From Methanobacteriota archaeon (GTDB taxonomy: Archaea; Thermoplasmatota; Poseidoniia; Poseidoniales; Thalassarchaeaceae), in assembly GCA_002730095.1 (NCBI GenBank), contig PBZE01000037.1:1695-65694 (forward strand): 64,000 nucleotides of DNA. The letters are read 5' to 3'. Below the pieces are notes generated by a model, which was not told the origin of the DNA, did no database searches, and saw only the letters and a program-made list of their open reading frames with translations. Position numbers and translations under genes: made by a program. Of the stretch, positions 5,701-50,162 are shown one piece after another; the stretch's first letter is position 1, and each line of letters starts with the position of its first letter.

Positions 5701-8700
5701 ATGTCCATAGGCTGTTCGTCATTGACGAGAACGGTCGTCATGCCTGGCCTCGCTGTCTCATTGATCCCTTCCCACGTTCTTTCACCGATAATGGCGTTCA
5801 GTGGACGAGCGGCCCTTTGTCCGCTCTTATCTGACTCCACCATGGCATCGACAGGTGAGAAGTGATGAAGACCGTCATCGGAGACCAAATAGAGGCCATC
5901 ATCACTTAGATCCATGCCTCTTGGATCATTGAGAAGACCGTACTGAGATTTGACTAGATGCGCTCCACCCGCGTCCATGACATCAATTCCTCCCGGGCTG
6001 ATCATCACTAGGTTTCCACCATGGGATGATAATTCGGATGGGGGCCATGACATGAGGGAGTTAGTAGGCGCGCCGACTTCCATATCCAATGATGAAGAAT
6101 TCCAGTGAACCATCGGGGAAATGTCTGTGGCAATATGAACCCCCCAATCGTCAGCTGCCACAGAACGCACATCATTACTGGGGATTTTGTCGATTTGATA
6201 TGTCACATTCACGCTGTCTGTGTTGATGTCCCATGCAACAACCCCCGGCCTAGTGGGGCCTTGTCCGTTGTGAGATACAAATATCGCCTCATCATGGAAC
6301 TCAGTCACAATGACGCCGTTTTCATCGGTGAACTGCCTAGTTACACTATCGGCATAGACGAGTCCAGATACTCTGTTTCCAGCCAATCCATCAGTAGCAC
6401 CTCTGGTAGTTAGAACGGTGAGATTTGAATCCAAAATTGTAATTCCTGAAGGTCCTCCTGCCAGTATCACATCGCCCTGGCTCGGAATATCGACTACCAG
6501 GAGATGCTCGTAAATTGATATCGGAAGACCGTCAAATGTTGTTATCGGGTCTTCCCATTCAGAGAGCGTGTTGTTGTATACGGCAATTCCTCCCCATGTT
6601 GCTGACAATATTTTATCCCCAAAGGCTACGAAATCCTTCACAATATCATTGGGAAGACCAGCTAGGAGGCTGCCATCGCCCCATGAGTCAAGAGAGGTAT
6701 CGAATGTCTGGAAACCTGCTGCGGAGCCGTCATTCCCCATCAGTCCAACATACAGCATTCCATCATCGTCATCGAATACCATCCCATCCATTTGTCCGTG
6801 CAGTGCCGGAGGCAATGGAGCGTATGATCTCTGATTCAGGTCTATGGAATACAATCCTCTGCCAGCAGTAGTAACCCACATCGTATCTCCATCCAATAGC
6901 ATACTGTTGATTACATCGTCATCGAGGAGGTTGTATCCATATTCCCACCTGACAGACCCATTTTGTAGGATGGTCCCTTGGAGGATCGATGTCGCGTAGA
7001 AGGAATTGCTGTCGAATGCCGATGCCACCCAGACATGGGTAGAGTTGGATGCGAACTCTACAACTCTCCCGCTGCTTAGTCCGGCCAATTCATCGAATCC
7101 CGAGGCTATTAGTCCGGAACTATCGAGCCTATCGACTCTGTTCAGTCCGGTGGTTTGGCCCGATCGACCTATAGCGTAAGTAGGGGTATTAGCAGGTACA
7201 CGGACTATCGAACATCCGTCCATTCCGGGACTTAGGATTGCCCCACCGGTCACAGAGGTTCCAGAGGTGATTACTCTAGAGATCCCTCCAGTGTCTTCAT
7301 ATTGATGAGCAGAAAGTAGAACGTTTCCATCGTGAAGCATGCCCCCGGGGAAAATCCGGTCTTCTGAAATTCCATCAGCTGATGTTAGCGTTGATAGGAA
7401 ACTTCCGGTATTGTAGTTGTACCTGTCCAGCCCCACGCCATCCGTGTCAAAACCAATGTACAGAATCTTGTTCGCCTCATCACAAGCAAGGGCCCTGGGG
7501 TCATTGTCAGACAGGCCGTTGCTACCTCCCTCAGTAAGAGGGTCAATCCACTCGCCGATTACTCCGTCAGAGTCATGATCAGCCATATCGAATCTTGCTA
7601 CTCCGCCCTGATTGCCCCACCAAGAGAGCCTGCCAATAGCGAAGTGAATTATGTCGTCACAAACAAGTATGTCTGCACCATATCCACCGGGTATATCTCC
7701 AGAACCAAGATCCCAAACCGTCCAGTTACCCGTCGTCCCGTTCTTGGTTAGGATTTGTGCATTCGAGTTCCAGCTGCCTTGCTGATGGGATGCCACCCAA
7801 AGATCATCGCCCACGATTTCCATCGAAAAGAACTCATCCTCGGTGTTGTTAGGCAGTCCATCGTTCTCAGTCCATTCAGTCTCAAAAGTCTCATTGACAG
7901 GATTCCACCTGTATATCCCTTCCATTGTCGCAAAGAGGTATTCGCCATTGAATTCCTCCATCCCCCTAACAGGGCCCGGGAAGTCATCCCACTCGTCTAG
8001 AAGTGTCATCGAGGAGTATTGGAACCTCCTCATTATGTTGTCCCCATATGCCACCCACATCTCACACGAGGTTGTGTTGAGGGGGAAGCAATCTCCCAGC
8101 AGTCTGGCATTAACCCTCTGAACGTTCCCGATTGTAGGCAGATCGTCTTGCCATGTCTCGTTATTGGTATTCCATCTAACTATCGTCCCTTCCCCGTCAT
8201 TCCAGGACTGCGTGGGCCTGACGCCTATCCACAGCTCATCTCCAACTACCCCCATTCCGTAAACTCTTGAGTTTGACCCGATTCTGGACCCAGCGTCTAG
8301 TGTGGTTAGGGAGGTATTGTTGTTGAGCGCTATTCTGTAGATCTCGTCATTAGAGTTCCACCATTGATTTGACCTCTGAGTGGAGTAATGTAGGACATCA
8401 CCAACAATTACCATGTCAGCAGGGCTTCTTGAGGGAATGGAGGGGCCGTTGGCGTTCACTCCTCTGCCCCAATTGATCAGTACGGTGTCATTGACAACGT
8501 CAATCAGCGTCAGCCCGAAATCTCCCCCGGCCCACAAAGTTCCACTTTGTCTACCCGGTATCAGGGTAGTCACGTCATCATCATCTATGTACCCCTGCGA
8601 TCCGTCCCAAGTGGTAAGCCACACTTCGTTAGCTAGGTCATATCTTGCGATGCCAGTATTTTCGAACCCCAAGTATAGGATCTCGCCGATCTTAACGGTT

Positions 8701-35971: not shown

Positions 35972-38049
35972 GAAGAGTTGTACTTTGGTCGCCTTCCTTC
36001 GATTAAAGCACTCAAACCCTCTTCTGCATCTGCAGTACTGAAGATCTCTTCAAGTCTTTCCAGCTCTAGTTCAAGACCCCTGTCTAGACTAGATCCAGTC
36101 CCAATGTCCGAAAGAAGCTCGTTCGCTATCTTTAGAGCAATCGGGGCAGCTCTCGACAATGACTTGATCTGCCTTGAAACTAAAGGATCCTCAGAATCGA
36201 AACCCGAAGGAACTTCTCCTGCTAATAGAGATTGAACGTTTTCATTGGAGTAGAAATCCTTCGCGAAAGAGACTATGTCGCTATCTCCATTAATCGGCTC
36301 ACTAGGATATTTATTCTCAGGCTTAGTTCCAATGAGGGTACTAACAATGGACTCGACTTCAGAAGCATCCACATTATGAGTTAGAAGGCCTAAATCATGT
36401 GCAGTAGTACAATCTAGGAAGTTTCCAGCCAACACCGCATATCTTGAGCATTCTAAACCGCATATTCTAGCTGTCCGCTGAGTCCCTCCTAGTCCTGGGT
36501 ATATGCCTATTGATGTCTCTGGGAACCTGAATTGACTTCTCCTGGTTCCTATTCTGTAGTCGCAAGATAGAGCCAGTTCGAGACCTCCTCCCAATGCCAA
36601 ACCGGTCGTAAGAGCTATTGTGGTCTTCTGGCTTTTTTCAATTGCGTTCAGAACCTCATGTCCGTTTGCGGTGAATTCGTAAATATCCCCAAATGAGTCC
36701 TCTCTCAACTTGTCAACAAAGAATTTGACGTCTGCTCCAGCAACGAACGCCTTACCGGCCCCCTCAAAGATCATGGTCGATATATCGGATCTTGAATTGA
36801 TTTGTTCAACTATAACACCAAGTTGCGATACCAGTTCGACATTTAGTGCATTCATAGCCTCTGGCCTGTTCAACTTCACCCTGGCCACGTCTCCATCTAC
36901 TGTCAAGTCAACGTATGAGAATTCGAATTTCTCCATCTTGCTAGTAAACCATATTGGTATCTCCAGTCCGGCTAAATCTGAGTATTCAGAAGCCATACGA
37001 GATGCATTTCTGATCCCAATCTCATTCGCCATTTCAAATGGCCCTTTGGCCCATCTAAGACCGACTTTGGCCCCTCTGTCAACATCTTCCATCGAACAAA
37101 TCCCCTCCTCTACAATTTGAGATGAAACAGAAAACACCTGCCCGAGTAATCTTTCTGAGATTATTCTACTACTTTCTTCGTCACAATCCTCAGATCCTTC
37201 AATGTCCCACATTCTTCCTTCTTCTACCAGTTTCCTGAGGTTTCCCGCCCCCCTATATCTTGGGGTTTCTAATTGCTCAGCTAGATAGTCGGTTGAGTGT
37301 AGCGCAATAGGCGGTCCAGTAAGATTCATCAGGGCGAACGGGCCCATCCCAATACTGAACGATTTTCTGCAAACGGCGTCTATCTGTGCTGCAGTGCCGA
37401 CACCTTCTTCCAACAGTAAACATGCTTCATTTAGCCAAGGAACAAAAAATCGATTTACGACAAATCCGGGCCTATCTTTGCAGACGATAACCACCTTTCC
37501 CATCGCCTTGCAGTACTGTTCCACTTGATTGACGCTCTCCTCGGAACTTTTGGATGCGGGAATAATCTCCACAAGTCTATTTTTTGCTGGGTGGTAGAAG
37601 AAGTGAAGCCCAACAAACCTATCTGGCCTTCCTGTGACTTCAGCCAATTCGTTTACCGACAGCGAGGAAGTATTGCTGGCCAATATGGTACTCTCTCCGC
37701 ATACCTCGTTCAGAGTCTGGAATACTCCCTTCTTGATATCAAAGTCCTCGAATACTGCCTCAATAACTAGGTCTGTGCTCGGATCGACATTCTCCGTCCC
37801 AACCACTCCCAAAATCCTCGATTTAATATCCTCAACCTGCTTGGAATTGAAAATACGTCGATCCTCGGCCTCCTTTAGAAAGCTCGATACAATCCCATGG
37901 CCTCTATTCACCCACTCTTGCTCTCTATCTACCATTTGAACCTCAAAAAGCTCTTGAGCACTCTTCTGTGCTATCCCAGAGCCCATGTTTCCTGCACCAA
38001 TGACTGCCACCTTCTCAATCAGTCCCATGGCCTTCCGACGTGGGGCCAA
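35968..38049 (-). CDS. fused 3-hydroxyacyl-CoA dehydrogenase (N-terminal) / enoyl-CoA hydratase (C-terminal)
   Basis: VAVIGAGNMGSGIAQ is the NAD Rossmann motif and VVNRFFVPWLNEA a HAD block. The crotonase fold follows: VARVKLNRPEAMNAL, FVAGADVKFF, GLALGGGLELALSCDYRI. The domain order is reversed relative to bacterial FadB, as is known for archaeal fusions. Confidence 0.85.
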   Translation of the reverse strand: MAPRRKAMGLIEKVAVIGAGNMGSGIAQKSAQELFEVQMVDREQEWVNRGHGIVSSFLKEAEDRRIFNSKQVEDIKSRILGVVGTENVDPSTDLVIEAVFEDFDIKKGVFQTLNEVCGESTILASNTSSLSVNELAEVTGRPDRFVGLHFFYHPAKNRLVEIIPASKSSEESVNQVEQYCKAMGKVVIVCKDRPGFVVNRFFVPWLNEACLLLEEGVGTAAQIDAVCRKSFSIGMGPFALMNLTGPPIALHSTDYLAEQLETPRYRGAGNLRKLVEEGRMWDIEGSEDCDEESSRIISERLLGQVFSVSSQIVEEGICSMEDVDRGAKVGLRWAKGPFEMANEIGIRNASRMASEYSDLAGLEIPIWFTSKMEKFEFSYVDLTVDGDVARVKLNRPEAMNALNVELVSQLGVIVEQINSRSDISTMIFEGAGKAFVAGADVKFFVDKLREDSFGDIYEFTANGHEVLNAIEKSQKTTIALTTGLALGGGLELALSCDYRIGTRRSQFRFPETSIGIYPGLGGTQRTARICGLECSRYAVLAGNFLDCTTAHDLGLLTHNVDASEVESIVSTLIGTKPENKYPSEPINGDSDIVSFAKDFYSNENVQSLLAGEVPSGFDSEDPLVSRQIKSLSRAAPIALKIANELLSDIGTGSSLDRGLELELERLEEIFSTADAEEGLSALIEGRRPKYNSS

Positions 38050-38127
38050 TCAATGAATGCAACGGACGAACTGTGTCAAATTAATTCACCAATGAATTTA
38101 TTCATTCCGCACATCCCATACAGGGCC

Positions 38128-40779
38128 ATGGCACCACGGCGCGTCATCTCGGTAGTATTGATATTCATACTACTATCTTCTGTTTCTCAGGTGGCCATTG
38201 CTAACAGTGGAGGCAAGTTCAATTCGTCCAATGGCTGCAACTGTCATGGTGGATCCGCGGCCTCGCCAACTCCCACTCAGAACTTTCCAACAATCTACTC
38301 ACCCGGTCAGACGTACTCTCTAAACATAGGGATGAATGGAGGAGTTTCTGGGTCAAAGGGCGGATTCAATCTAGAAGTTTCTGACGGCACACTTTCAACA
38401 GGAATTGGAATCATGAACACTCAGGTAAATCAAGCCGGGAACCAAGCAACCCATCAATTCCCAGACTACAGAAGCTGGTCTCTGGAGTGGACAGCTCCTT
38501 CAGCGGGAACGGGGTCGGTTACCTTCTCGCTAGCGGTAATGGCGGCGAATGGAAATGGGAATAACGGCGGGGATGGATGGGCAACCGTTTCAGTCCAGTC
38601 TAGCGAGGACTCCGGATCTACAAATAACCCCCCGGTTGCATCAGCATTGACCTATGTCCCGGCAAATCCAACCAAGGAGACCGGATTGTCAATTTCATAC
38701 AATTACTATGATGAAGACGGTGACTTCGAACAAGGAACCTCAATTCACTGGTTTAGAGACGGCCTCAGAGTGACCCAGATAGACGACCTGACAGACGTTC
38801 CGAACAGCTTCATCTCAAAGGGTCAAAGTTGGAGGGTCGAGCTTACTCCCAACGATGGTAATGAATTTGGCGATATGATTTCTCTAGATCCAATCACGAT
38901 TGGCAACACATTGCCTATTGCCAGGACCTTGTCTATTAGTCCAGACTCTCCCATGGATGACGATGACCTAACCTTGTCTTGGGAATATTACGATCTTGAT
39001 GGGGATCCCGAGAATTCCCAGCAAACGATGATTTATTGGTTCTTAGATGGCTCAAGAGTTGTTGAACTGGATGGAGAACTAACAGTCTCTAGCTTCATGA
39101 TTAGGTCTGGAGACGAGTGGGAGGCTTCAGTTACGCCGAGCGACTCTTCGGATTATGGTGACACTGCATATAGTGGAAAGGTTGTGATCGGGTCATCTAA
39201 CACCGGACCTTCAGTTACTGCCTTCATCTCAACTACAGGTAACACGTTAACTACCGACTCCCTTCAGCTCATCTACACTCCATATGATCCAGATGGAGAC
39301 GAAATACAATCGACTGAGATAAGATGGTTCAGGGACACCGTGATGGTTGCAGCGTTCAATGATGAGACTATAGTAGACCCATCATTTACAGCCAAAGGAG
39401 AGGAGTGGGAAGCTCATGTTAGAGTATTCGATGGCCTCGTATGGTCAGATTGGTACGTAACTACCCATGTCGACATTGTCAACACCCCACCAGTGGTAAC
39501 AGACATTTCCCTATTGCCAGAAGGAAAGCTAACAACCGACTCTGACCTGTATGTGGAATGGGAGCAATTCGATGTGGATGGAGATCTGGAGTTCGGGAGC
39601 CAGATTAGATGGTGGGTCGATGGCGAATGGATTACTGAATATGATGGACTGACGACTATTTCTCACTCTGAAGTAGACAGAGACGAACATTGGTCCGTTC
39701 AAGTAATCCCGGGGGATGGAGAGGATCTTGGAACTTCAATGAAGACCAACTCTAGAGCAATTGAAAACGCGAATCCCTCAATACTCGAAATATCATTACA
39801 AGGATCTGGACCTGATAGTATTCTAGGGTCGCCCGATTCACTGAGCGACCTCCTAGCAGTCACAGTATCTGAAGATCCAGACAATGAGCCGGTCGACCTC
39901 GACTATTTATGGTTCAGAGATGGTTTCGTGATACCTGAGCTAGATGGTTTGGATCGGGTGGATCAGATAAGGCTTGAGCCAAGTCAGGAATGGGAGGTCA
40001 TTGTAACAGCTACCGATCCGTGGGGACTCTCGGCAAATCTCTCTGCATCGGTGATTATCTCAAATATTGCTCCTCAGGCTTCATGGTCAGTTACTCCATC
40101 TCCACCAATTTCTGGGTCATTAGCAACATTCGATGCTACCTCATCATTCGACCTAGATGGAGAAATCACCTCCTATAAATGGGTGATAGATGGCGTGGAG
40201 GCCTCAGGAAGTACCATTGATGTGATCATGGGCCCAGGGCCACACTCAATCCATCTGACAGTTGTGGATAATCTACAGTTAGAGGGAATATCAGTTTCCA
40301 CAATAGTATACGACGATGTTCAGACTACTGCCTCTCTGACGGCCTCTTTGGAAGGGGACCAAGTTCTGTTGAGCTGGCAAGGAACTGCTGATGAATACAG
40401 GATATACAGATCTACTAGCCCGATATCCTCTGTCGTTGGGCTTACAATGTTCGATGAGCAACCCTCATGGGGAGAGGCGATTCCACAACCCCTACAGTCA
40501 TTAGACTCTACAGAATACCTAGAGTGGAGCGAAACGGCTCCAATAGCTACGACTCTCTACTATGCCGTGACATCAGTGGTTGATGGCAGAGAGGTGGTAT
40601 GGATAATTGATGGACAAAATCACGTCAATGTTGACGCATCGTCGATCGCATCGTCTGGACCAGAACCAATTGATGAGGCAAGTGACCTCACAACCATGCT
40701 TATCTCGGTGACCATGGCAGCTCTAGGAATCATATCTTTGGCGTTTGCTATTTACGACAACAGGAGGAGATTGAGATGA
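38128..40779 (+). CDS. secreted, C-terminally anchored protein: Cys-x-Cys-His-Gly / Reeler-like N-domain, five tandem ~95-aa repeats, PKD-like and FN3-like domains, TM anchor
   Basis: The track ORF starts at 37897 but overlaps the fadB-like gene. The in-frame MAPRRVISVVLIFILLSSVSQVAIANSGG at 38128 is a signal peptide. NGCNCHGG lies at 38236-38247. The PKD-like segment is LATFDATSSFDLDGEITSYKWVIDG. The C-terminus LISVTMAALGIISLAFAIYDNRRRLR is a TM helix plus an Arg cluster. Confidence 0.8.
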   Translation: MAPRRVISVVLIFILLSSVSQVAIANSGGKFNSSNGCNCHGGSAASPTPTQNFPTIYSPGQTYSLNIGMNGGVSGSKGGFNLEVSDGTLSTGIGIMNTQVNQAGNQATHQFPDYRSWSLEWTAPSAGTGSVTFSLAVMAANGNGNNGGDGWATVSVQSSEDSGSTNNPPVASALTYVPANPTKETGLSISYNYYDEDGDFEQGTSIHWFRDGLRVTQIDDLTDVPNSFISKGQSWRVELTPNDGNEFGDMISLDPITIGNTLPIARTLSISPDSPMDDDDLTLSWEYYDLDGDPENSQQTMIYWFLDGSRVVELDGELTVSSFMIRSGDEWEASVTPSDSSDYGDTAYSGKVVIGSSNTGPSVTAFISTTGNTLTTDSLQLIYTPYDPDGDEIQSTEIRWFRDTVMVAAFNDETIVDPSFTAKGEEWEAHVRVFDGLVWSDWYVTTHVDIVNTPPVVTDISLLPEGKLTTDSDLYVEWEQFDVDGDLEFGSQIRWWVDGEWITEYDGLTTISHSEVDRDEHWSVQVIPGDGEDLGTSMKTNSRAIENANPSILEISLQGSGPDSILGSPDSLSDLLAVTVSEDPDNEPVDLDYLWFRDGFVIPELDGLDRVDQIRLEPSQEWEVIVTATDPWGLSANLSASVIISNIAPQASWSVTPSPPISGSLATFDATSSFDLDGEITSYKWVIDGVEASGSTIDVIMGPGPHSIHLTVVDNLQLEGISVSTIVYDDVQTTASLTASLEGDQVLLSWQGTADEYRIYRSTSPISSVVGLTMFDEQPSWGEAIPQPLQSLDSTEYLEWSETAPIATTLYYAVTSVVDGREVVWIIDGQNHVNVDASSIASSGPEPIDEASDLTTMLISVTMAALGIISLAFAIYDNRRRLR
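38626..40074 (+). repeat. five tandem protein-level repeats (~95 aa, ~285 nt) inside the 38128-40779 gene
   Basis: Each unit reads Y(Y/D)xDGD...(I/Y)xW(F/W)(R/L/V)DG...G(D/Q/E)xW...V(T/I)P.DG....G......I.N..P. Examples: YYDEDGDFEQGTSIHWFRDG, YYDLDGDPENSQQTMIYWFLDG, PYDPDGDEIQSTEIRWFRDT, QFDVDGDLEFGSQIRWWVDG, DNEPVDLDYLWFRDG. Confidence 0.8.
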
Positions 40780-41855
40780 ACAGGATCGCCATTGTAATGC
40801 TTCTGTGCATATCCCTGGTATTGGCCCCTGGTTACTCAGTGGCGAACCCAGGAGGAAATGGAGACGCCGATAGGGATTACTCCTGCGGAGGGTCCTGTCA
40901 TGGAGATCCATCTCTAAGCATGCAGTCAGATGCTAAAATTGAGATCTCTCTTGGAAATGAGGCATTCTATGGGCAAGCCGTAGCTGTACATGTGACAGTA
41001 AGTGAAGTGTCTTCACCCACCAATATTTTCGGTATATTCATTCTCAGCTCCTTGAACGGCAACTCTGACACCCCAGAAGATTATGGTTGGCATATGATTC
41101 AGGACCCAAATGGGGGATCATCAAATTATATTGAAATGACAATGCCGTCTTCTGGAACAATTACTGCAACATGGGTAATGCTTACTCCAGAAGATCTCGG
41201 AAGTCATATTTTGTATGCAGAGATTCATCATGGTTCGTATGGCGGCGAAAAGGCATTTTCCGGCGTCAGTGAAGGCTTTGAGGTAATTGTCAACGAGGTC
41301 CCCGAAGGACTTCCGGGGATTTCCAGTGATTGGGTCGCACCATCATTCAGGGTTTCTGGTGACGACTCTCCCCTGCATATCAGTACTAGGAACTCAACAG
41401 ATATCTCTGTCGAATGGATGCTTGAGGGTGAATGGGACCCTATTTCAGCCCCAGTTCAATGTATCTCTGAATCAGGAGAGGAGATATGCAACGAATGGGA
41501 GGTGAATATTCCAGCCACCATGGGTGAAATCGACATTGTCTACAGAATTACAACATTCAATGGAACCTTCTCAATCGAACAGCCTTGGCTTAAAATGGGC
41601 ACTGCAGCACCTCCTTTCGAGGGAGACATATGGTCAGCAAGAGCCCACTCATTCGCATTTGCGCTTCTAGTCATCTCAATCTTAGTTACCTTGCAAGGAA
41701 GACTTTCACCAGTCATTCAGAGGGAAGAAATCGACCAAACAAAAATAGTCGATAAGTCGTCCCTGATCAGGTCTGATGACAATCCTGGATGGCTCTGGAA
41801 TCCAGTAGCAGAGGAATGGGTAGAAGACCCGGAGTATCGAGAGGAGGTCGAGTAA
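40776..41855 (+). CDS. secreted, anchored paralog with an N-terminal Cys-x3-Cys-His-Gly / Reeler-like domain
   Basis: Signal peptide MNRIAIVMLLCISLVLAPGYSVANPGG. SCGGSCHGD lies at 40884-40901. A TM helix (FAFALLVISILVTL) is followed by an acidic tail. The start overlaps the upstream stop (ATGA). Confidence 0.8.
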   Translation: MNRIAIVMLLCISLVLAPGYSVANPGGNGDADRDYSCGGSCHGDPSLSMQSDAKIEISLGNEAFYGQAVAVHVTVSEVSSPTNIFGIFILSSLNGNSDTPEDYGWHMIQDPNGGSSNYIEMTMPSSGTITATWVMLTPEDLGSHILYAEIHHGSYGGEKAFSGVSEGFEVIVNEVPEGLPGISSDWVAPSFRVSGDDSPLHISTRNSTDISVEWMLEGEWDPISAPVQCISESGEEICNEWEVNIPATMGEIDIVYRITTFNGTFSIEQPWLKMGTAAPPFEGDIWSARAHSFAFALLVISILVTLQGRLSPVIQREEIDQTKIVDKSSLIRSDDNPGWLWNPVAEEWVEDPEYREEVE

Positions 41856-42445
41856 TGGTAGGCTCTGCAACACTGCACACTGCAATGGCTGAGATAGTCG
41901 TAGGCTCTATGGTACTCGCTACCATCTGTGCTATTGGGTGCTTGGCCTCTAGGATTCTTACTCCTTCAGAAATCAATAGCGAGTCTCTTTTCATTACCAT
42001 GGACCGAGCCTCTCTAGCTGGGTCTTCTCTGGCTCTTTTATTCCTCCCTGTCGCTATAATGACTGGAAATCTTGCCGCCGAAGGACACGCCGAAAGCGCC
42101 CTCCTGTACAACAAGTTCGTCTATAGTGGCCTGGCCCTTGGCTTCTGGTCAGCCTTCGTGATTGGCAGGTATAGGATGGGGCCCGGGCTGTGGGATGTCA
42201 GGCAATTGGCAATTCTGCAGGCTGCAACCGCTGTGTCTGCTTTCCTCATGACTTCCATGGCTTCTTCTATTGGGGGAAAGCTAGTCAGGGGAGAATCGCT
42301 CTTTGATATCCTTCCATTCTGGCTACCTTCTGACTCGGCAGCCATTCTCCCATTATGGGCGTCGTCCTCACTTCTGTTGTTAGGCCTCATCTCCACATTT
42401 TTCGTCTTCAGGCTAACTCTTCCGAGAATACAGGAGATTGACTAG
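41855..42445 (+). CDS. polytopic membrane protein (about 5 TM), unknown function
   Basis: The track ORF begins at 41789 inside the upstream gene. ATG 41855 overlaps the upstream TAA (TAATG) and is preceded by GAGGAGG. There are five hydrophobic helices and only two His residues, so it is not a cytochrome b561. Confidence 0.65.
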   Translation: MVGSATLHTAMAEIVVGSMVLATICAIGCLASRILTPSEINSESLFITMDRASLAGSSLALLFLPVAIMTGNLAAEGHAESALLYNKFVYSGLALGFWSAFVIGRYRMGPGLWDVRQLAILQAATAVSAFLMTSMASSIGGKLVRGESLFDILPFWLPSDSAAILPLWASSSLLLLGLISTFFVFRLTLPRIQEID

Positions 42446-44889: not shown

Positions 44890-45594
44890 GTGCTGGAAGT
44901 AAGTAATCTGACGAAGTCCTTCGGCTCGGGAAGGAACAGGCTCGAAGTGCTAAAGGGAATTGATTTGAAAATCGAATCCGGTGAGCTCGTCGCTCTAATG
45001 GGGCCGTCAGGATGTGGAAAGTCCACCCTTCTGAACATTATCGGCGGACTTCTGGAAGCTGACTCTGGCTCCATTTCACTGAATGAATTTGATTATGGGA
45101 CATATCCCCCGAACAGGGTTGTAGACGTCAGAAGAAACGGAGTGGGATGGATATTCCAAGACTTCCATCTTGTAGACAGGCTTTCCGCACTCGACAATGT
45201 GACTTTCGCTTTGGAGCTATCGGGCGTCCCAACCTCACTCGCAGAGTCGCAGGCTGAGGAGGCACTTCGCAAGGTTGGCCTGTCAGACAGAATGAACTTC
45301 ATCCCTGACCAGCTTTCGGGAGGGCAGAGGCAGAGGGTCGCCATTGCCAGAGCAATCTCTGGCTCGAGGCCCCTCATCCTTGCTGATGAGCCGACTGGCA
45401 ATCTAGATGTCAAGAGCGCTGAAGGAATTCTTGATCTTTTCAAGGAGCTATGCGAGGATTATGGCATCTCCGTCCTGATGGTTACCCATGACCCTAACCT
45501 TGCATCAATGGCAGACAGAATGCTCCTACTCAAGGACGGTGTTACTGCCGCTTCAGATATCAGATCTGCATGGGGAACGGCGGGTGATGAATGA
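44890..45594 (+). CDS. ABC transporter ATP-binding protein (MacB/LolD/FtsE-like)
   Basis: Walker [13 protein letters not shown], signature [14 protein letters not shown], Walker [15 protein letters not shown] start. The stop overlaps the next start (ATGA). Confidence 0.9.
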
Positions 45595-48500
45595 TGGATT
45601 TCTTCTACGAGGATGATCACAGGCCAGAATCTCCAATGCATCCATTTGAGGCCATAAAGAAATGCATCGTAAAGACAGGGGACCTAGGGGGAAGGGCGTC
45701 AAGATCAGAATTCTGGAACTTCTTTTGGTTCTATCTTATACTGGCTCCAATATTATTTGTAGCTGACATTTTTTACAAAATTATGATTTTATCATTGTCC
45801 TCTCTTGTGGGCATAGGATTGCTTGATACACTTTTCTTTGTTCCCCTGTCCTACCTAGTTCTCTTTACTCAACTTGCTCTGTTCTATTCCTTCACAAGTG
45901 TAACCGTTCGTAGGTTGCATGATTTAGGAAGATCTGGTTGGTGGTTAATCAGTACCCCGATCCCTCTCCTCAACTTTGTACTGCCTTTCTTTCTTGTTCA
46001 AGAGGGTGAATACAATAAAAATGAGTACGGATCAGTACCAGACAATGATCCGATAAACGCTTCAATCATGGAAATAATGTATGCCATGCCTGACAATATG
46101 TCAATGGCGTTCAAGAGTGCTTGGAAGGGAAGGGAAAGGGTACTCGCAGTTTTTGCAGGTGTCTTCTTGGCATCGCTTGTCATAACTACAGTCCTAGCTT
46201 ACTCTGCTGGACTGAATGGGGCTTTCCTACAATTCTCTCTACAAGATGAAATCTTTGACGGAAAGGTGGATTTCGCCAATGACCCGGGTCAGGATTCTGA
46301 AGGCAGAACAAATGACTCATTACTCTGGGAAACCGCCTGCTCTGAACTCATACAGATGGACGAAATATCCGATTGTGGGTTAGTATTCGGCAGACAGGGA
46401 GTGAGAGTCAGCGGATTTTTAGATGATGGCGCCATAATTCCTCAGCCCCTAAATGCCGTAGGGGTCACTAGTACTGTTGGGGATTGGAACAATGTCAGTT
46501 GGGAATATCCCGAGGCTTATGACTCAGGACCTCCAATTAACGATAAGAGGACGATAAGGTTCTATGGAGAGGGAATATGGGACGGCGATTTGGGAGAGAG
46601 ACATTCTAACCGGGTGATATATGGATCATGGCCAGGATCTGCTGAAGAAGCCGCTTCAAATCGCTCGATCATCCTCCCTTCTCAAATTGCTGGTAAGGCA
46701 GGTGTAGGAGTAAACGACACCCTCGAATCATTAACCTTCTCTTACACATACGACTACCTTGGCTACCAAGATATACCCTCTGGCTTCGATGACTGTCCCG
46801 GGTACGAATATTTCAATCTCGATTCTGGATTCCTGTATTGTCAAGTTAACATGACGGTTTACGATCTCAAGGTAGCCGCGGTTTATCAGGAAGGAGGGGC
46901 AGGCAACCCAACTCTCCTGTTTAATCCGATAATGGTCTCGGCCTCGGTTCTCAACGATTCTCAGAAGCTTACCCTGATGGACAATGATCACGGATACCTC
47001 GGAATAGCAGTAGATAGGAACCAGCTCCCCTCCTCATCTACGAGCGCCGCCACGAAGTGGCTGGATGGATTGAAGGGGGAGATTGAGGGGTCCAATTACA
47101 CTATCGGTAATGACATAATGGTTGAATACAACGACCTCATTTCAGGCTCCATTTTATTCCTCGAGTTGTTATTGGGGCTAATAAGTGTCTTCGACTACAT
47201 CCTGATGATACCAATAGTGATACTATCATTCTCAGTTCTTATTTATGGTCTGATACTTTCTCTGGAACAGAGGAGAAGGGAGATCTCAATTCACAGGGTT
47301 ATTGGGGGTACGGAGTCAACTCTCGGCTCCCTGATTCTTCGAGAGCTGTCGGTTGTAAGTGTGCTTGGTTGGTTCTTAGGATATGTCCTCGCAATGGCCT
47401 CCGTGCCAGTAGTACTTGATGCGGTTGGATTCATGGCCTTCGAGAAAAGTGACTTCAGAGTAGTGCCCACATTGAGCGGGTTAGCTACATTCTTGATTTT
47501 CCTCGTGACAGTCGGGATAACTCTACTCTTTGGGAGCTCCAGAACATCAGAATTCTTGAGTATAGAAATCGATGAAGGAGTCAGAAGAGTTGCTCCTAGG
47601 AAGAGATCAAGGTTTTGGCTACACCTTCTGGTCTTCTTTGTTGGCGTCCTGTCATTTGTAGAGAGCTGGATAGAGAGTAACGGTGGTTTTGGTCCGTGGG
47701 GACCAAAGGGAATAAACTCCAATTTCATAGTCGATGGACTATTATTCCTGTTCGGCCCGTTCTTCCTCTGGATAGGTGGAGCCCTAGTACTCGGTAGAAT
47801 AGGCGCGGCGGGGCCTAGGATATTCACGACATTGTTTGGGTGGACCCCTGTCCTGACAGATATCAAGAGGGGATTGAGGGGATCAGGGTCGAGTGAATCA
47901 GTGAATCGTCTAGCAATAATATTACTGCTAACCCTATCAATTGTCACTGTTGCAGCCGTACAGGGGTATACCGGAACTCTGGTGGACGAGAGAACCACTT
48001 CTGCGCAGACCGGTGCGGACTTGCAGGTTCAATTCGATGAGCCAATCTCACAGCAACGAGCTATGGAGGAGGTAACGCTAGCAATACAAAGAGCCGATGT
48101 ATCCGAGATTGACTCAATAGACTACATGACCTCGGTCGGAGATATCTTCACAAATCAGAAAGGCGAAGGTTCCCTTCTCAGGACATGGATCGTCTTTGAT
48201 GGGCATGAAGATACTTTACAATGGGATGAGCAGGCAATACCGGGCAGTGACATTGGAGCTGTGTCAGATGACTGGGCATTATCGGGATTCACTGCTGGTG
48301 GGGCTGCAAGAAACCAATTGGATATTTCTAAATCAGATGTTGGATCTAATGTAACTTTACAGTACACTTCCTACGGATTCGGAGGATTCGATAGCGAAAT
48401 GAATCCAATAATAACCTCGACGATAACTGAGGCTGAGGTAACATACATGGGAGGACACAGATGGGTTCCAGGGTTACTATCCTCAGAGTCATCCCAAGCT

Positions 48501-49163
48501 ATAGTCATCGGTGAAGGAACTTACAAGCTTCTTCTAGGGCCATCGGCTGTCACTGACTACACGTCGAATCGCTGGTTCTTCGAGCTATGTGACCAGTCTC
48601 AAAAGGATTGTAAAAACGCATTGAAGACCCTAGGTGTCGAGGTCTCAAACGGTGAGGGCGTCTCATCCGCTAGCGATTGGGGGACAAATCATGAGGGCAA
48701 TGAACGTACAGGCGGGCTAATTTTCGGTACGCCGGGACTCCTAAGCCTGCAATTCGTCGTGGCATCATTGGCTTCGATAGCCTCGGCATTCGTATTCCTA
48801 TCACTCGTTCTATCACAGAGGAAGAAGGAACTGGCCATTCTTCAGGCGATCGGAGCAAGCCCGGCGCAGGTATTGCGTCTGGTACTTTTCGAGATAATGG
48901 CGATTCTCTTGGTTAGTATGGCCCTGGGAGTTATTCTCGGTTTGGCTATATCAGAATCATTCAACGGATTCTTCGGGGTATTTGGATTCATTTTCCAGAT
49001 TTTCCTCGGTCAGAGCGCCCCGATAGACAGGGACTTAGTTTGGCCTTGGACAGAGTTAATCATCGTGAATGCCTCAGTGCTCGTAGCGGTTGTGATAGCT
49101 CTTCTACTGACAACCAGGAGAGCATTGAAGTCTGACTTGGCAATAGTGCTGAAGGGGGAGTGA
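45591..49163 (+). CDS. 1190-aa fusion: N-terminal DUF805 membrane domain plus a double FtsX-type (MacB-like) ABC permease with two large extracytoplasmic domains
   Basis: DUF805 hallmarks are PFEAIKKCIVKTGDLGGRASRSEFWNFFWF...TVRRLHDLGRSGWWLI...NKNEYG (nt about 45642-46040). The two FtsX helical bundles are EISIHRVIGGTESTLGSLILRELSVVSVLGWFLGYVLA and ELAILQAIGASPAQVLRLVLFEIMAILLVSMALGVILG. Each is preceded by a soluble loop of 200-300 aa. Confidence 0.8.
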   Translation: MMDFFYEDDHRPESPMHPFEAIKKCIVKTGDLGGRASRSEFWNFFWFYLILAPILFVADIFYKIMILSLSSLVGIGLLDTLFFVPLSYLVLFTQLALFYSFTSVTVRRLHDLGRSGWWLISTPIPLLNFVLPFFLVQEGEYNKNEYGSVPDNDPINASIMEIMYAMPDNMSMAFKSAWKGRERVLAVFAGVFLASLVITTVLAYSAGLNGAFLQFSLQDEIFDGKVDFANDPGQDSEGRTNDSLLWETACSELIQMDEISDCGLVFGRQGVRVSGFLDDGAIIPQPLNAVGVTSTVGDWNNVSWEYPEAYDSGPPINDKRTIRFYGEGIWDGDLGERHSNRVIYGSWPGSAEEAASNRSIILPSQIAGKAGVGVNDTLESLTFSYTYDYLGYQDIPSGFDDCPGYEYFNLDSGFLYCQVNMTVYDLKVAAVYQEGGAGNPTLLFNPIMVSASVLNDSQKLTLMDNDHGYLGIAVDRNQLPSSSTSAATKWLDGLKGEIEGSNYTIGNDIMVEYNDLISGSILFLELLLGLISVFDYILMIPIVILSFSVLIYGLILSLEQRRREISIHRVIGGTESTLGSLILRELSVVSVLGWFLGYVLAMASVPVVLDAVGFMAFEKSDFRVVPTLSGLATFLIFLVTVGITLLFGSSRTSEFLSIEIDEGVRRVAPRKRSRFWLHLLVFFVGVLSFVESWIESNGGFGPWGPKGINSNFIVDGLLFLFGPFFLWIGGALVLGRIGAAGPRIFTTLFGWTPVLTDIKRGLRGSGSSESVNRLAIILLLTLSIVTVAAVQGYTGTLVDERTTSAQTGADLQVQFDEPISQQRAMEEVTLAIQRADVSEIDSIDYMTSVGDIFTNQKGEGSLLRTWIVFDGHEDTLQWDEQAIPGSDIGAVSDDWALSGFTAGGAARNQLDISKSDVGSNVTLQYTSYGFGGFDSEMNPIITSTITEAEVTYMGGHRWVPGLLSSESSQAIVIGEGTYKLLLGPSAVTDYTSNRWFFELCDQSQKDCKNALKTLGVEVSNGEGVSSASDWGTNHEGNERTGGLIFGTPGLLSLQFVVASLASIASAFVFLSLVLSQRKKELAILQAIGASPAQVLRLVLFEIMAILLVSMALGVILGLAISESFNGFFGVFGFIFQIFLGQSAPIDRDLVWPWTELIIVNASVLVAVVIALLLTTRRALKSDLAIVLKGE

Positions 49164-49166
49164 GAT

Positions 49167-50162
49167 ATGGAAGAGGAATCAATTATTCTTGAAGCTAAGA
49201 ATATGTATCATATCTACGAGAGCATGAGCCTAGAAGGAAATGTAGTTGCATTGAGAGGACTCAATGTTAAGATCAAGGAGGGCGAGGCCGTTGCTGTCAT
49301 AGGCCCATCTGGATCTGGAAAATCAACACTTCTGAAGTGCCTAGGTGGTTTGATGAAACCATCATCTGGCTCAGTCTCGCTAGGTGGGAAGGAAATGATA
49401 AGAATGACTGGAAACGAACTAGTCAGACTCAGGCAGGAAACAGTCTCTTTCATCTTCCAAGACTCAAATCTACTTCCCGATCTGAATGCCCTGGATAATG
49501 TCGCACAACCACTCAGGCACCAAGGGGTGATGCCGGGGCCTGCAAGGGCCAAGGCTAGGGAGTTGCTCGAGAGGCTAGCGATGGGTGACAGGTGGATGGG
49601 TATGCCAGAGCAACTCTCCGGAGGAGAGCAACAGCGTGTGGCGATCGCTAGGGCACTGATAACCAATCCAAAGCTGATACTAGCAGATGAGCCAACAGGT
49701 GCGTTGGATCCAATCACCAGTAGGGAGGTCCTAGAGTTGTTCGAGAAGCTCCATGAGGAGGAAGACGTGGCCTTCTTACTGGTCACCCACAATAGGGACG
49801 TGGCGTACTTCTGCGAGAGGTCTCTGGAACTCAGAGAGGGGAGGTTCGTGGCACAACACGGCACAGATTTCGACTTGTCAGATCTCTCAGAAACTAGGGA
49901 GCTAATTATCGACGATACCGGTACCATAACTCTCCCTCCAGATCTATTGTTGAAGCTCGGAGGGCCTGGAAGGTTCGACGTCCCCAATGTGGAAAGAGAC
50001 TCTCTAAATCTAGAGAGAGTGGAAGACGAGAAAATCGAGGTCGAGGCCAAGAATAAGAGAGAGCTTGCACAGACCTGTCCCGCTTGTAATTACGATTATG
50101 CTGACTCAATCGATCAGATTTGTCCAGAATGCGGGTCCACGAGGCCAATTGTTCACACTTGA
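49167..50162 (+). CDS. second ABC ATP-binding protein with a C-terminal extension ending in a zinc ribbon
   Basis: Walker [38 protein letters not shown]. An extra tail of about 95 aa ends in CPACNYDYADSIDQICPECG (nt 50076-50132). Confidence 0.9.
   Translation: MEEESIILEAKNMYHIYESMSLEGNVVALRGLNVKIKEGEAVAVIGPSGSGKSTLLKCLGGLMKPSSGSVSLGGKEMIRMTGNELVRLRQETVSFIFQDSNLLPDLNALDNVAQPLRHQGVMPGPARAKARELLERLAMGDRWMGMPEQLSGGEQQRVAIARALITNPKLILADEPTGALDPITSREVLELFEKLHEEEDVAFLLVTHNRDVAYFCERSLELREGRFVAQHGTDFDLSDLSETRELIIDDTGTITLPPDLLLKLGGPGRFDVPNVERDSLNLERVEDEKIEVEAKNKRELAQTCPACNYDYADSIDQICPECGSTRPIVHT

Follow-up and report, generated by a model that had tools for sequence, protein, structure and literature searches.

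What does a Cys-x(n)-Cys-His site do when it is built into two paralogous surface proteins of a single archaeal operon? The question is raised by three genes on the forward strand of a 64-kb window (the whole stretch of 64,000 nucleotides that was analysed) from a marine group II (MGII; Poseidoniales) archaeon. An earlier note on this DNA described them as a translationally coupled module of two Reeler-like exoproteins and a polytopic membrane protein, suggested that it binds metal or haem or serves redox chemistry, and pointed to the eukaryotic FRRS1/SDR2 proteins as an analogy. The operon is found throughout the Poseidoniales lineage, and its three translationally coupled genes constitute a cell-surface module. 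The site itself probably serves to bind a cofactor or a metal and is not there for structure alone; the favoured candidate is covalently bound haem c, to which a probability of about 0.4 is assigned.

Organization and conservation of the operon

Gene 1 (38128..40779; 883 aa), gene 2 (40776..41855; 359 aa), and gene 3 (41855..42445; 196 aa) are all encoded on the + strand. At the junction of genes 1 and 2 (40762..40779), an AGGAGG sequence (40762-40767) is followed by an ATGA stop/start overlap (40776-40779). Likewise, GAGGAGG (41841-41847) precedes a TAATG stop/start overlap (41853-41857) at the junction of genes 2 and 3 (41841..41857). These overlaps and the GAGGAGG bear out the translational coupling that had been proposed. 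Genes 1 and 2 also overlap or abut in the related loci L001-L005, and the 1-nt overlap of genes 2 and 3 is common to L001, L003, L005, and L006. A TATA-like element, TTTATTCA (38091..38106, + strand), lies 22-37 nt 5' of the gene 1 ATG and may act as the operon promoter. It is enclosed by an inverted repeat of 7 nt (AATGAAT/ATTCATT), and the motif (A/G)A(A/C)TTATTCA(G/T) is found at an equal distance from the start in many orthologous loci.

The grouping of the three genes is upheld by synteny across 86 related Poseidoniales loci. Gene order was identical wherever the locus was long enough; gene 2 was preceded by a gene 1 orthologue in 85 of the 86 loci and followed by gene 3 in 84, both exceptions being contig ends. 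All relatives that could be named to family level belonged to Thalassarchaeaceae/MGIIb. Gene 2 had 77 homologues, all of them Poseidoniales-type, and its relatives occurred in 121 GTDB species genomes. The three-gene arrangement, in which a divergent second copy of the domain is joined by a small membrane protein of its own, is specific to Poseidoniales. Its neighbours, glycosyltransferases and a MacB-like ABC exporter, are related to the cell envelope.

Two membrane-anchored proteins displayed at different heights

The gene 1 protein is a type I membrane-anchored surface protein. It begins with a signal peptide (residues 1-25; 38128..38202) that has a hydrophobic segment at residues 6-24 and a predicted cleavage between VAIA and NSGG, and the mature N-terminus N-S-G-G-K is conserved among its relatives. 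The signal peptide is followed by a choice-of-anchor V, or prokaryotic Reeler-like, domain (profile match at residues 18-155; 38179..38592) and by a stalk of five tandem repeats of ~96 aa (38626..40077). The repeats, whose motifs start at residues 208, 304, 400, 495, and 595, share the consensus Y.Y.D.DGD ... W[FW].DG ... W.V.VTP.DG, and relatives gave weak matches to Cadherin_4 and Big_9. Then come a PKD-like domain (residues 648-716; 40069..40275), a further beta region, and a C-terminal transmembrane helix (residues 857-876) with a basic tail, DNRRRLR (40696..40776). The PKD-like assignment comes from a match to PF18911 PKD_4 that is below the cutoff (E 0.0016); PKD_4 is present in 20 of 61 long family members. 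The helix, identified by hydropathy, and its R-rich tail are conserved across orthologues. In other words, the gene 1 domain is displayed at the end of a ~700-residue stalk of Ig-like repeats.

The gene 2 protein (AlphaFold2 model, pLDDT 80) is also a type I membrane protein and is built more compactly. Its signal peptide (residues 1-23; 40776..40844), recognized by hydropathy, has a predicted cleavage between YSVA and NPGG, with A23, N24, P25, G26, and G27 invariant or almost so. An N-terminal beta-sandwich (residues 24-176; 40845..41303) is followed by a second, Ig-like beta-sandwich (residues 186-278; 41331..41609; strands 191-277, pLDDT about 90), a transmembrane helix seen in both the model and hydropathy (residues 285-310; 41628..41705), and a conserved cytoplasmic tail motif, PGWLW(D/N)PV.EEWVEDP (41784..41831), in which P337, L340, W341, and W348 are invariant or almost so. 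The modelled strands of the N-domain (48-173, pLDDT about 80-93) agree with the beta-rich segment that the earlier note had read from the sequence. A fold search with the model returned generic two-Ig matches only. The gene 2 copy of the domain is held one Ig domain above the membrane. The term exoprotein has to be amended for both proteins: their signal peptides are as described and indicate export, but a C-terminal anchor tethers them to the membrane, and they are not released. Neither signal peptide has a conserved twin-Arg, so the gene 1 protein is presumably exported by Sec.

A prokaryotic relative of the Reeler domain

Residues 18-155 of the gene 1 protein matched the NCBIfam model NF041895 (choice_anch_V) at 96 bits (E 2.2e-27; cutoff 42 bits). 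The gene 2 protein of the window was below an NF041895 match, and 10 of 31 gene 2 orthologues matched it (best E 2.4e-7). When the gene 2 and gene 1 families were aligned by hhalign, the E-values were 2e-4 and 3.8e-4 (probability 47% and 36%), and CxnCH and W..AP of one family fell opposite their counterparts in the other. The gene 2 N-domain is thus a divergent choice-of-anchor V paralogue, in agreement with the paralogy claimed earlier.

The Reeler likeness also holds. The gene 1 family profile matched the reeler domain of F-spondin (PDB 2ZOU, 2ZOT, and 3COO) over ~100 residues (E 5.7e-5), and Pfam Reeler (PF02014) was matched by 9 of 24 relatives in one set (best 3.3e-5) and 7 of 61 in another (best 2.3e-7), although the proteins of the window themselves fall short of a match. 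The likeness consists of a beta-sandwich and the shared motifs Y.PG..Y, GF, and W.AP.(A/S)G.G.V. There are differences as well. The F-spondin alignment begins past the Cys-x-Cys-His segment, and a Glu of F-spondin (in VTES) stands where the gene 1 family has a conserved His (His109). Eukaryotic Reeler domains have a long-range disulfide pattern; the gene 1 and gene 2 proteins have two neighbouring Cys instead. Profiles and motifs place the tip domain among the prokaryotic relatives of animal Reeler.

The family has an existing catalogue entry, choice-of-anchor V, and some archaeal homologues carry this name at NCBI. In this family, the domain is N-terminal, after the signal peptide, and the C-terminal anchors vary: the gene 1 and gene 2 proteins have a transmembrane helix, and bacterial relatives have a T9SS Por_Secre_tail or FlgD_ig. 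NF041895 is a naming model without an assigned function, and a literature search found no functional description of choice-of-anchor V or its archaeal homologues.

An invariant Cys-His with a variable first Cys

The motifs C37-N-C39-H40 of gene 1 (CNCH, 38236..38247) and C37-G-G-S-C41-H42 of gene 2 (CGGSCH, 40884..40901) were found where the earlier note had placed them. A six-frame scan of the window's stop-to-stop ORFs of at least 100 aa turned up no other C-x(1-4)-CH motif, as had been claimed, apart from a CTNDCH at 37993; this one precedes the gene 1 ATG, in frame with it but outside the coding sequence.

How strictly is the site conserved? In a family alignment of 151 members, C39 and H40 were present in 148 of 148 non-gap members and C37 in 143; a four-member clade has Ala in place of the first Cys (AxCH). 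The first Cys lies 1-7 residues upstream of the second. Among the best 150 representatives, n was 1 in 83, 2 in 42, 3 in 2, 4 in 12, 5 in 2, and 7 in 1, making CxCH the commonest form. It is the only form seen in Poseidoniales gene 1, where 76 of 78 orthologues have it and the other two are masked by N/X. Each of the 74 gene 2 homologues collected independently of the motif had it, and C37, G39, S40, C41, H42, G43, D44, and P45 were invariant among them. These counts support the Cys/His conservation that the earlier note's reading calls for. In the cofactor-free AlphaFold2 model of gene 2, the motif segment (residues 19-41) is the sole low-confidence extracellular part, with pLDDT below 50.

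Two further residues accompany CxnCH in the gene 1 family, namely His109 (A-T-H; 38452..38454; His in 142 of 151 members) and Asp149 (N-G-G-D; 38572..38574; Asp in 148 of 151). His109 is a candidate second ligand. In the alignment of the two families, gene 2 has no His at this position; it has an invariant H152.

The membrane partner encoded by gene 3

The gene 3 protein, identical to a database protein (P0117) and with 329 homologues, appears to be a Poseidoniales-restricted polytopic membrane protein of about five transmembrane helices with conserved polar residues on its predicted outer face. Its hydropathy (four strong hydrophobic segments and one weaker) is consistent with the 5-TM protein described earlier. 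The invariant residues are H8, E13, D50, N86, K87, W98, R105, R145, E147, and D151. Two orthologues align with DUF2231 (Pfam PF09990), a family without known function, at profile positions 3-131 of 139 starting from the N-terminal His, but their scores (18.5 and 16.5 bits) are under the 26.4-bit cutoff, and 11 of 13 family members, including the protein of the window, have no match. Searches of Pfam, NCBIfam, and PDB gave no cytochrome b family match, and by these comparisons gene 3 is not a recognizable haem-b protein.

Does the site carry haem c?

The invariant Cys-x(n)-Cys-His may be a cofactor site, most likely for a covalent c-type haem with the Cys-adjacent His as its proximal ligand. 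Haem-c motifs vary as CXXCH, CX3CH, CX4CH, and AXXCH, in which CH is invariant and the first Cys is variably spaced and dispensable; CX3CH and CX4CH occur in cytochromes c3 and AXXCH in Euglenozoa. The variation in the choice-of-anchor V family follows the same pattern and supports the haem c reading, and a disulfide of purely structural purpose would hardly explain why the second Cys is retained where the first is lost. As in c-type cytochromes, the motif faces outward just past the signal peptide. There is precedent for this arrangement in cytochrome f, whose beta-sandwich has the haem motif close to the start of the mature chain, and in Cyc2, which has an N-terminal CXXCH.

Further evidence comes from the genome and from relatives. 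The haem would be added outside the membrane by an archaeal Ccm machinery, and the absence of a conserved twin-Arg suggests that both proteins cross the membrane unfolded and reach the side on which Ccm works. The haem lyase noted earlier is indeed a CcmF-family protein (27606-29993, 8.1 kb upstream) with an intact WGGYWAWDPVE motif and similarity to Thermus thermophilus CcmF (6zmq, E 6e-20). According to a published report, MGII has no canonical bc1 complex and therefore no cytochrome c1 (PMC6336850), so this lyase needs other clients. One relative, P0328, has a choice-of-anchor V domain (CTECH) fused to two genuine TsdA/SoxA-like cytochrome c domains. Two others, P0298 and P0348, carry it together with a membrane domain of four helices and four His, which likewise favours the haem reading.

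Some findings stand against haem c. Cytochrome c profiles of Pfam and NCBIfam matched neither the gene 1 nor the gene 2 protein, and to our knowledge no covalent haem site of the CxCH form has been described. Cytochromes do not usually show spacings of 1-7 within one domain family, and a thiolate metal chelate or a disulfide loop rich in Gly/Ser would accommodate them just as well. The F-spondin Reeler domain is a cofactor-free adhesion/heparin-binding module and, as aligned, has no counterpart of the N-terminal segment. A gene 1 domain atop ~700 residues without intermediate cofactors would be awkwardly placed to exchange electrons with the membrane. Fusions to redox modules occur in only 3 of 150 relatives, most being fused to adhesin-type PKD, fn3, and Big domains. 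Finally, CcmF lies in a generally syntenic block and not in the operon, and CcmABCE were not found in the window.

Alternative explanations

Less probable than haem c is a site for the reversible binding of Cu, Zn, or Fe, with the two Cys, the adjacent His, and the conserved His and Asp as ligands. Such a site might stabilize the fold or serve capture and relay from gene 1 to gene 2 to gene 3 at the membrane, in the manner of Sco, CopC/CopD, YcnI/YcnJ, or NEAT-domain relays. C37, C39, H40, H109, and D149 are conserved residues of ligand type, a chelate would tolerate both the variable spacing of the Cys and the loss of the first, and two paralogues at different heights are coupled to a polytopic protein with outward polar residues. 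Sco uses CxxxC plus a distal His, and the CxxxC-H and invariant H152 of gene 2 form a similar ligand set. However, searches of Pfam, NCBIfam, and PDB gave no similarity to established families of metallochaperones or transporters, gene 3 lacks the signature of a transporter, and a strictly adjacent Cys-His is not a recognized metal motif. Thiolates left free on the outside of an aerobic cell of the surface ocean would also be prone to oxidation, and the relatives fused to cytochrome c or four-His membrane domains favour redox over transport. Somewhat more doubtful still is an adhesin or scaffold without a cofactor, comparable to F-spondin, reelin, and insect Reeler proteins. Here, the tip would bind polysaccharide, particles, or cells, the Cys pair would form a short disulfide loop stiffening the N-terminus, the His would take part in ligand binding, and gene 3 would assist as a partner in the membrane. 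The five Ig-like repeats and PKD-like domain of gene 1 suit this role, as do the PKD, fn3, Big_5, or cadherin-like stalks and Por_Secre_tail-type sorting signals of most family members, the variable Gly/Ser-rich Cys spacing, and the envelope-related neighbours. MGII is, moreover, thought to attach to particles, according to one source (PMC4511931). On the other hand, the clade with Ala for the first Cys keeps Cys2-His and would be left with an unpaired Cys, the absolute invariance of CH in a family that numbers several thousand clusters exceeds what a stabilizing loop needs, and fusions to cytochrome c domains exist.

A conduit of the FRRS1/SDR2 type, in which gene 3 as a b-type cytochrome would feed the haems of genes 2 and 1 with electrons from the cytoplasm or quinone pool, is very improbable. 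The operon shares with the FRRS1/SDR2/CG8399 CYBDOM ferric reductases a Reeler-type domain outside the cell on a membrane-bound assembly, and eukaryotic proteins combine Reeler, DOMON, and cytochrome b561. Two relatives, P0298 (CNCH) and P0348 (CTCH), carry the domain on an Ig stalk with four C-terminal transmembrane helices of one His each, and one long family member matches DUF4079 (E 1.2e-14). Yet the CYBDOM proteins have DOMON and b561, whereas the operon has neither and encodes its components as separate genes. Pfam and NCBIfam searches of the three proteins found no DOMON domain, and when gene 3 was compared by hhalign with the four-His domains that P0298 and P0348 carry, the probability was below 1%. 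The single invariant His of gene 3 (H8) largely rules out such a conduit. Of the earlier analogy, the Reeler-like domain stands and the DOMON and b561 redox architecture falls, because gene 3 is not cytochrome b561-like.

Implications

Gene 3 most likely forms a membrane complex with gene 2. Under the favoured haem c reading, a redox-active haem would be presented at two heights above the membrane, where an external substrate, for example Fe(III), Cu(II), or a reactive oxygen species, may be reduced or oxidized.

A conserved operon in Poseidoniales

Three genes located at 38128-42445 on the + strand form a conserved operon that encodes two tethered surface proteins and a small membrane partner. 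Gene 1 (38128-40779), gene 2 (40776-41855), and gene 3 (41855-42445) are open reading frames (ORFs) of 883, 359, and 196 aa, respectively. Their coordinates were confirmed as the earlier note described them, along with both stop/start overlaps that it had claimed, ATGA between genes 1 and 2 and TAATG between genes 2 and 3. The sequence AGGAGG (40762-40767, + strand) is located 5' of the ATGA overlap, and GAGGAGG (41841-41847, + strand) is located 5' of the TAATG overlap. Synteny was also observed in relatives: across 86 fetched loci, gene 1 is followed by gene 2 and gene 3 wherever the contig reaches. A homologue of gene 1 was present in 85 of the 86 loci and a homologue of gene 3 in 84, the exceptions being contig ends, and the gene order held even for the most distant orthologues (32-36% identity). 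The wider neighbourhood is likewise syntenic, with a fatty-acid oxidation enzyme upstream and glycosyltransferases and a MacB-like ABC system downstream. As a result, adjacency alone is weak evidence for a functional link. Better evidence for an operon than adjacency comes from the conserved overlaps; that of 1 nt between genes 2 and 3 is found again in the loci of relatives. The named homologues all come from Poseidoniales (marine group II, MGII), and the family, where named, is always Thalassarchaeaceae. A search of 5.8 billion proteins returned 77 homologues of gene 2, all of Poseidoniales type, and relatives of gene 2 were found in 121 GTDB species genomes.

An 18-nt motif, ATCAATGAATGCAACGGA, is present at 38049-38066 in the divergent intergenic region between a 3-hydroxyacyl-CoA dehydrogenase/enoyl-CoA hydratase gene and gene 1. 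It occurs as a single copy in the window, and 35 of 88 fetched loci carry one copy in the same relative place, including some whose proteins are only ~40-50% identical. This motif is a candidate regulatory or promoter element that these loci share. Three consecutive HTH regulators (33341-35743, minus strand) of ArsR/MarR-like, ArsR/SmtB-like metalloregulator, and HxlR types immediately precede the fatty-acid oxidation gene and the operon and are kept in four related loci (L001-L004). An ABC system consisting of an ATPase, a 1,190-aa FtsX/ADOP-type duplicated permease, and a second ATPase (44890-50162) is located downstream of two glycosyltransferases, is syntenic with the operon in relatives, and may be envelope-related. 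For two large ORFs of the window, Pfam returned no match with an E-value of 1e-4 or lower: a giant 2,906-aa ORF (2727-11447, minus strand), which may encode another large surface protein, and a 984-aa ORF (60888-63842).

Reeler-like domains of the gene 1 and gene 2 proteins

The gene 1 protein begins with a signal peptide ending VAIA|NSGG, followed by a domain that belongs to the choice-of-anchor V family. The NCBIfam model NF041895 for this family matched residues 18-155 over profile positions 4-148 of 150, with a score of 96 bits (cutoff 42; E 2.2e-27), thus passing the curated cutoff. The model describes exported proteins with an N-terminal domain and alternative C-terminal anchors, and the gene 1 protein fits this pattern with its signal peptide and C-terminal transmembrane (TM) anchor; other members carry Por_Secre_tail or FlgD_ig as C-terminal parts. 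The likeness to Reeler claimed by the earlier note turned out to be right at the superfamily level. A direct Pfam match was not obtained, as PF02014 (Reeler) matched neither the gene 1 nor the gene 2 protein at E up to 1. Relatives matched PF02014 directly in 9 of 24 cases (best E 3.3e-5) and in 7 of 61 cases (best E 2.3e-7). Furthermore, when a 17-sequence profile of the gene 1 domain was compared with all PDB sequences, the top three matches were the reeler domain of F-spondin (E 5.7e-5 to 9.2e-5), and the alignment spanned Y.PG.(T/S)Y, GF, and W.AP.AGTG.V. The family is very large: the gene 1-domain profile retrieved 9,708 clusters at 50% identity with E 1e-3 or better, and 6,211 with E 1e-10 or better.

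Pfam gave a sub-threshold PKD match for the gene 1 protein and nothing else. Behind the Reeler-like domain come five repeats of ~96 aa and a PKD-like domain; another beta region then leads to the C-terminal TM helix, and an Arg-rich tail closes the protein. In other words, the protein is a long stalk with a Reeler-like domain at its tip. Many gene 1 orthologues (in loci L018-L085) have D-P-T-G-S just before the C-terminal TM helix and an RRR tail, a three-part layout that resembles sortase- or archaeosortase-type sorting signals; the gene 1 protein of the window (40600-40776) has GPEP at the position of D-P-T-G-S. Both the gene 1 and the gene 2 protein end in a TM helix and are therefore tethered and not released, which corrects their description as exoproteins.

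The gene 2 protein, whose signal peptide ends YSVA|NPGG, had no match to any Pfam or NCBIfam model, and NF041895 did not match it at E up to 10. NF041895 did match 10 of 31 gene 2 orthologues (best E 2.4e-7). Comparison of the gene 2 and gene 1 families by hhalign gave E 2e-4 to 4e-4 with a probability of 36-47%, in an alignment where the Cys-x(n)-Cys-His motifs of the two families lie in register, as do their W..(A/T)P strands. The two families further agree in their mature N-terminus, N-(S/P)-G-G. In a pairwise BLASTP comparison of the two N-terminal domains (N-domains), only the signal peptide and motif region aligned (E 0.008), so that paralogy rests on the profile evidence. On these alignments, the paralogy proposed earlier is accepted, and the two N-domains are probably divergent paralogues. 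A gene 2 N-domain profile found no Reeler match among PDB sequences; its one match, to a designed Kelch repeat, was spurious.

AlphaFold2 modelled the gene 2 protein with a pLDDT of 80 from 74 homologues and of 42 without an alignment. The model consists of a signal helix, a low-confidence segment that holds the motif (19-41), a beta-sandwich (48-173), an Ig-like sandwich (191-277), a TM helix (285-310), and a short conserved cytoplasmic hairpin (PGWLWDPV.EEWV). Foldseek comparison of the whole chain with the PDB gave generic two-Ig (scFv) matches with TM scores of 0.2-0.3. The strongly conserved Trp- and acid-rich tail that contains the modelled beta-hairpin, PGWLWDPV.EEWV.DP (residues 337-352; 41784-41831), suggests a cytoplasmic binding partner for the gene 2 protein. 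Taken together, the operon presents two Reeler-like domains at different heights above the membrane, each with an invariant Cys/Cys/His site.

The gene 3 membrane protein

Gene 3 has 329 homologues, all restricted to Poseidoniales. Its hydropathy profile shows four strong hydrophobic segments and one weaker segment, and the residues H8, E13, D50, N86, K87, W98, R105, R145, E147, and D151 are invariant. By the positive-inside rule, the conserved LLYNKF and SSIGGKLVRGESLFD loops, like the N-terminus, would be outside, towards the gene 2 ectodomain. Searches of Pfam, NCBIfam, and the PDB with the gene 3 protein gave nothing above threshold. Two of 13 gene 3 orthologues had weak sub-threshold matches to PF09990 (DUF2231) with scores of 18.5 and 16.5 bits (threshold 26.4; E 0.002 and 0.009) in which nearly the whole profile was aligned, and the gene 3 protein of the window had no DUF2231 match. 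Assignments as a rhomboid, CPBP, or archaeosortase protease and as CcdA/DsbD were rejected because the respective motifs are absent and the family has no invariant Cys and one invariant His.

An invariant Cys-x(n)-Cys-His site

The motif after the signal peptide is CNCH in gene 1 (C37, C39, H40; 38236-38247, + strand) and CGGSCH in gene 2 (C37, C41, H42; 40884-40901, + strand). A six-frame scan for C-x(1-4)-CH covering all ORFs of at least 100 aa in the window bore out that the motif is restricted to these two proteins, the sole further occurrence being in a non-coding in-frame extension upstream of the gene 1 ATG. The motif is also conserved across orthologues. For gene 2, 74 homologues collected without reference to the motif show no variation at C37, C41, and H42, nor at R33, D34, G39, S40, G43, D44, and P45. 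Of the 78 Poseidoniales orthologues of gene 1, 76 have CxCH, and the remaining two are masked. In an alignment of 151 family N-domains, the second Cys and the next His are present in all 148 non-gap rows, whereas the first Cys is present in 143 and is replaced by Ala in a four-member clade (G-A-T-C-H). Three further positions are highly conserved in these N-domains (gene 1 numbering): Trp121 (151/151), Asp149 (148/151), and His109 (142/151).

The spacing between the two Cys residues varies. Among the best 150 of 9,708 family representatives, a sample biased towards archaeal-like sequences, n was 1 (83), 2 (42, the canonical CXXCH), 4 (12), 3 (2), 5 (2), or 7 (1). Haem c is known to be attached at CXXCH, CX3CH, CX4CH, CXXCK, and AXXCH, and CX3CH, the form found in gene 2, is a rare variant. 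To our knowledge, CXCH, the form found in gene 1, is not among known haem sites and has no precedent. CXCH variants may be matured poorly or not at all by System I. Cys-spacing variation gave 'mixed results' in one paper. Known c-type haem motifs vary in just this way, with an invariant CH preceded by a shifting and sometimes absent first Cys. Because the second Cys is kept where the first is lost, the pattern argues against a purely structural disulfide, though not against a Cys/His/His/Asp metal site. Cytochrome c models in Pfam and NCBIfam matched neither the gene 1 nor the gene 2 protein; one relative had a weak match to Paired_CXXCH_1 (E 0.014).

Redox fusions and haem maturation

Additional information comes from proteins in which the choice-of-anchor V domain is fused to other domains. 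Most long family members carry the domain followed by PKD, fn3, or Big stalks and surface-sorting tails, as in adhesins. In one family relative (P0328), the domain (CTECH) is followed by two TsdA/SoxA-like cytochrome c domains with CNTCH in each (Pfam E 1.8e-14; PDB TsdA 4wqc, E 7e-5). In two others, P0298 (CNCH) and P0348 (CTCH), an Ig stalk connects the domain to four TM helices at the C-terminus with one His apiece, which would correspond to the ligand pattern of dihaem b-type membrane cytochromes. One long family member, presumably P0298 or P0348, matched DUF4079 (E 1.2e-14). These fusions tie the CxxCH and CxCH forms of the domain alike to redox partners, and P0298 and P0348, as CxCH-type proteins, are a prokaryotic counterpart in architecture of FRRS1/SDR2, in which Reeler is combined with cytochrome b561. 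No recurring partner gene was found in the neighbourhoods of two bacterial family members, and the literature offered nothing useful on DUF4079 or DUF2231.

The CcmF located upstream of the operon proved to be a CcmF-family lyase with an intact WWD motif. This 795-aa protein (27606-29993) matched Cytochrom_C_asm (E 3.7e-23) and a CcmF/NrfE model (E 4e-39, below the full-length cutoff). It also aligned with Thermus thermophilus CcmF (6zmq; E 6e-20); the WGGYWAWDPVE motif is identical in the two, and His residues align. The gene stands alone, as neither ccmABCE nor any other ccm gene is present within the 64-kb window; it is flanked by geranylgeranyl-reductase-like, UbiD, and UbiA genes and, at its other end, by an FKBP gene. 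Archaeal CcmABCEF is enough for cytochrome c maturation (PMC9084895). MGII has been reported to be without a canonical bc1 complex (PMC6336850), and in the reported absence of bc1 and cytochrome c1 the clients of the CcmF-family lyase are not obvious. The literature search found nothing useful on ccm genes in MGII. Twin-Arg is not conserved in the signal peptides of genes 1 and 2, which fits Sec export with a cofactor added on the outer side, and speaks against an Fe-S cluster. A Tat-exported, Rieske-like CxCH Fe-S site was rejected on this ground and because no CxH box is present.

Nature of the Cys/Cys/His site

For the nature of this site, we favour covalent haem c, with a probability of roughly 0.4. 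The case for it is built on how the motif varies, on topology, on the Ccm lyase, and on the fusions to redox domains. Several observations stand against it: CxCH is without precedent, the Cys spacing is unusually plastic, no cytochrome profile matches, and the long cofactor-free stalk of gene 1 would be awkward for electron transfer from the membrane. A reversible metal site, with which retention of the second Cys is compatible, is the less probable alternative, and the fusions to cytochrome domains point away from it. Somewhat more doubtful still is a cofactor-free adhesin tip closed by a disulfide loop; the adhesin-like stalks and tails of most long family members would suit it, and the clade that has lost the first Cys would not.

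The earlier note had drawn an analogy to FRRS1/SDR2. In an electron conduit of that kind, gene 3 would be the cytochrome b. The architecture of P0298 and P0348 lends this idea some appeal, but gene 3 has a single invariant His (H8) instead of four and is thus not b561-like, and none of the three proteins has a DOMON match in Pfam or NCBIfam. A comparison of gene 3 with the four-His domain of P0298/P0348, of which it could have been a degenerate homologue, gave an hhalign probability of <1%. We therefore regard such a conduit as highly improbable.

If the site does hold haem c, a broader model can be proposed, though only tentatively and with the odds against it. The choice-of-anchor V family would constitute a very large and so far unrecognised class of c-type cytochromes with a beta-sandwich fold, in which haem is attached via C-x(1-7)-C-H, the unprecedented CxCH included, and the operon would be an extracellular redox module. 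Its two surface proteins would be principal clients of the Ccm lyase in Poseidoniales, which are reported to lack cytochrome c1. The Reeler domain of the eukaryotic ferric reductases FRRS1/SDR2 would descend from a redox-cofactor module and not from an adhesion module.

Novelty and implications

The domain itself is not new, being catalogued as NF041895, and public models suffice to recover its link to Reeler. Three features were not found described in the searchable literature: the invariant Cys-x(n)-Cys-His site with its haem-like variation, the redox fusions of the choice-of-anchor V domain, and the Poseidoniales three-gene operon with its second divergent copy and dedicated membrane protein. 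No paper pairing 'reeler' with 'CXXCH' was found, nor anything useful on CXCH haem sites.

The uncultured Poseidoniales rank among the most abundant archaea of the sunlit ocean. Very little is known of the biochemistry of their cell surface, and at least 121 species-level genomes carry the operon. If the haem site is true, the domain family would amount to a new fold class of c-type cytochromes with >6,000 protein clusters at 50% identity (E 1e-10 or better); the known range of haem-attachment motifs would widen, and the Ccm lyase of MGII would have a substrate. The Reeler domain found in animal and insect ferric reductases, so far unexplained, would gain a testable hypothesis as well. If the site instead serves metal binding or adhesion, the operon would still give studies of particle attachment or trace-metal acquisition by MGII a well-defined and conserved surface module to work with.
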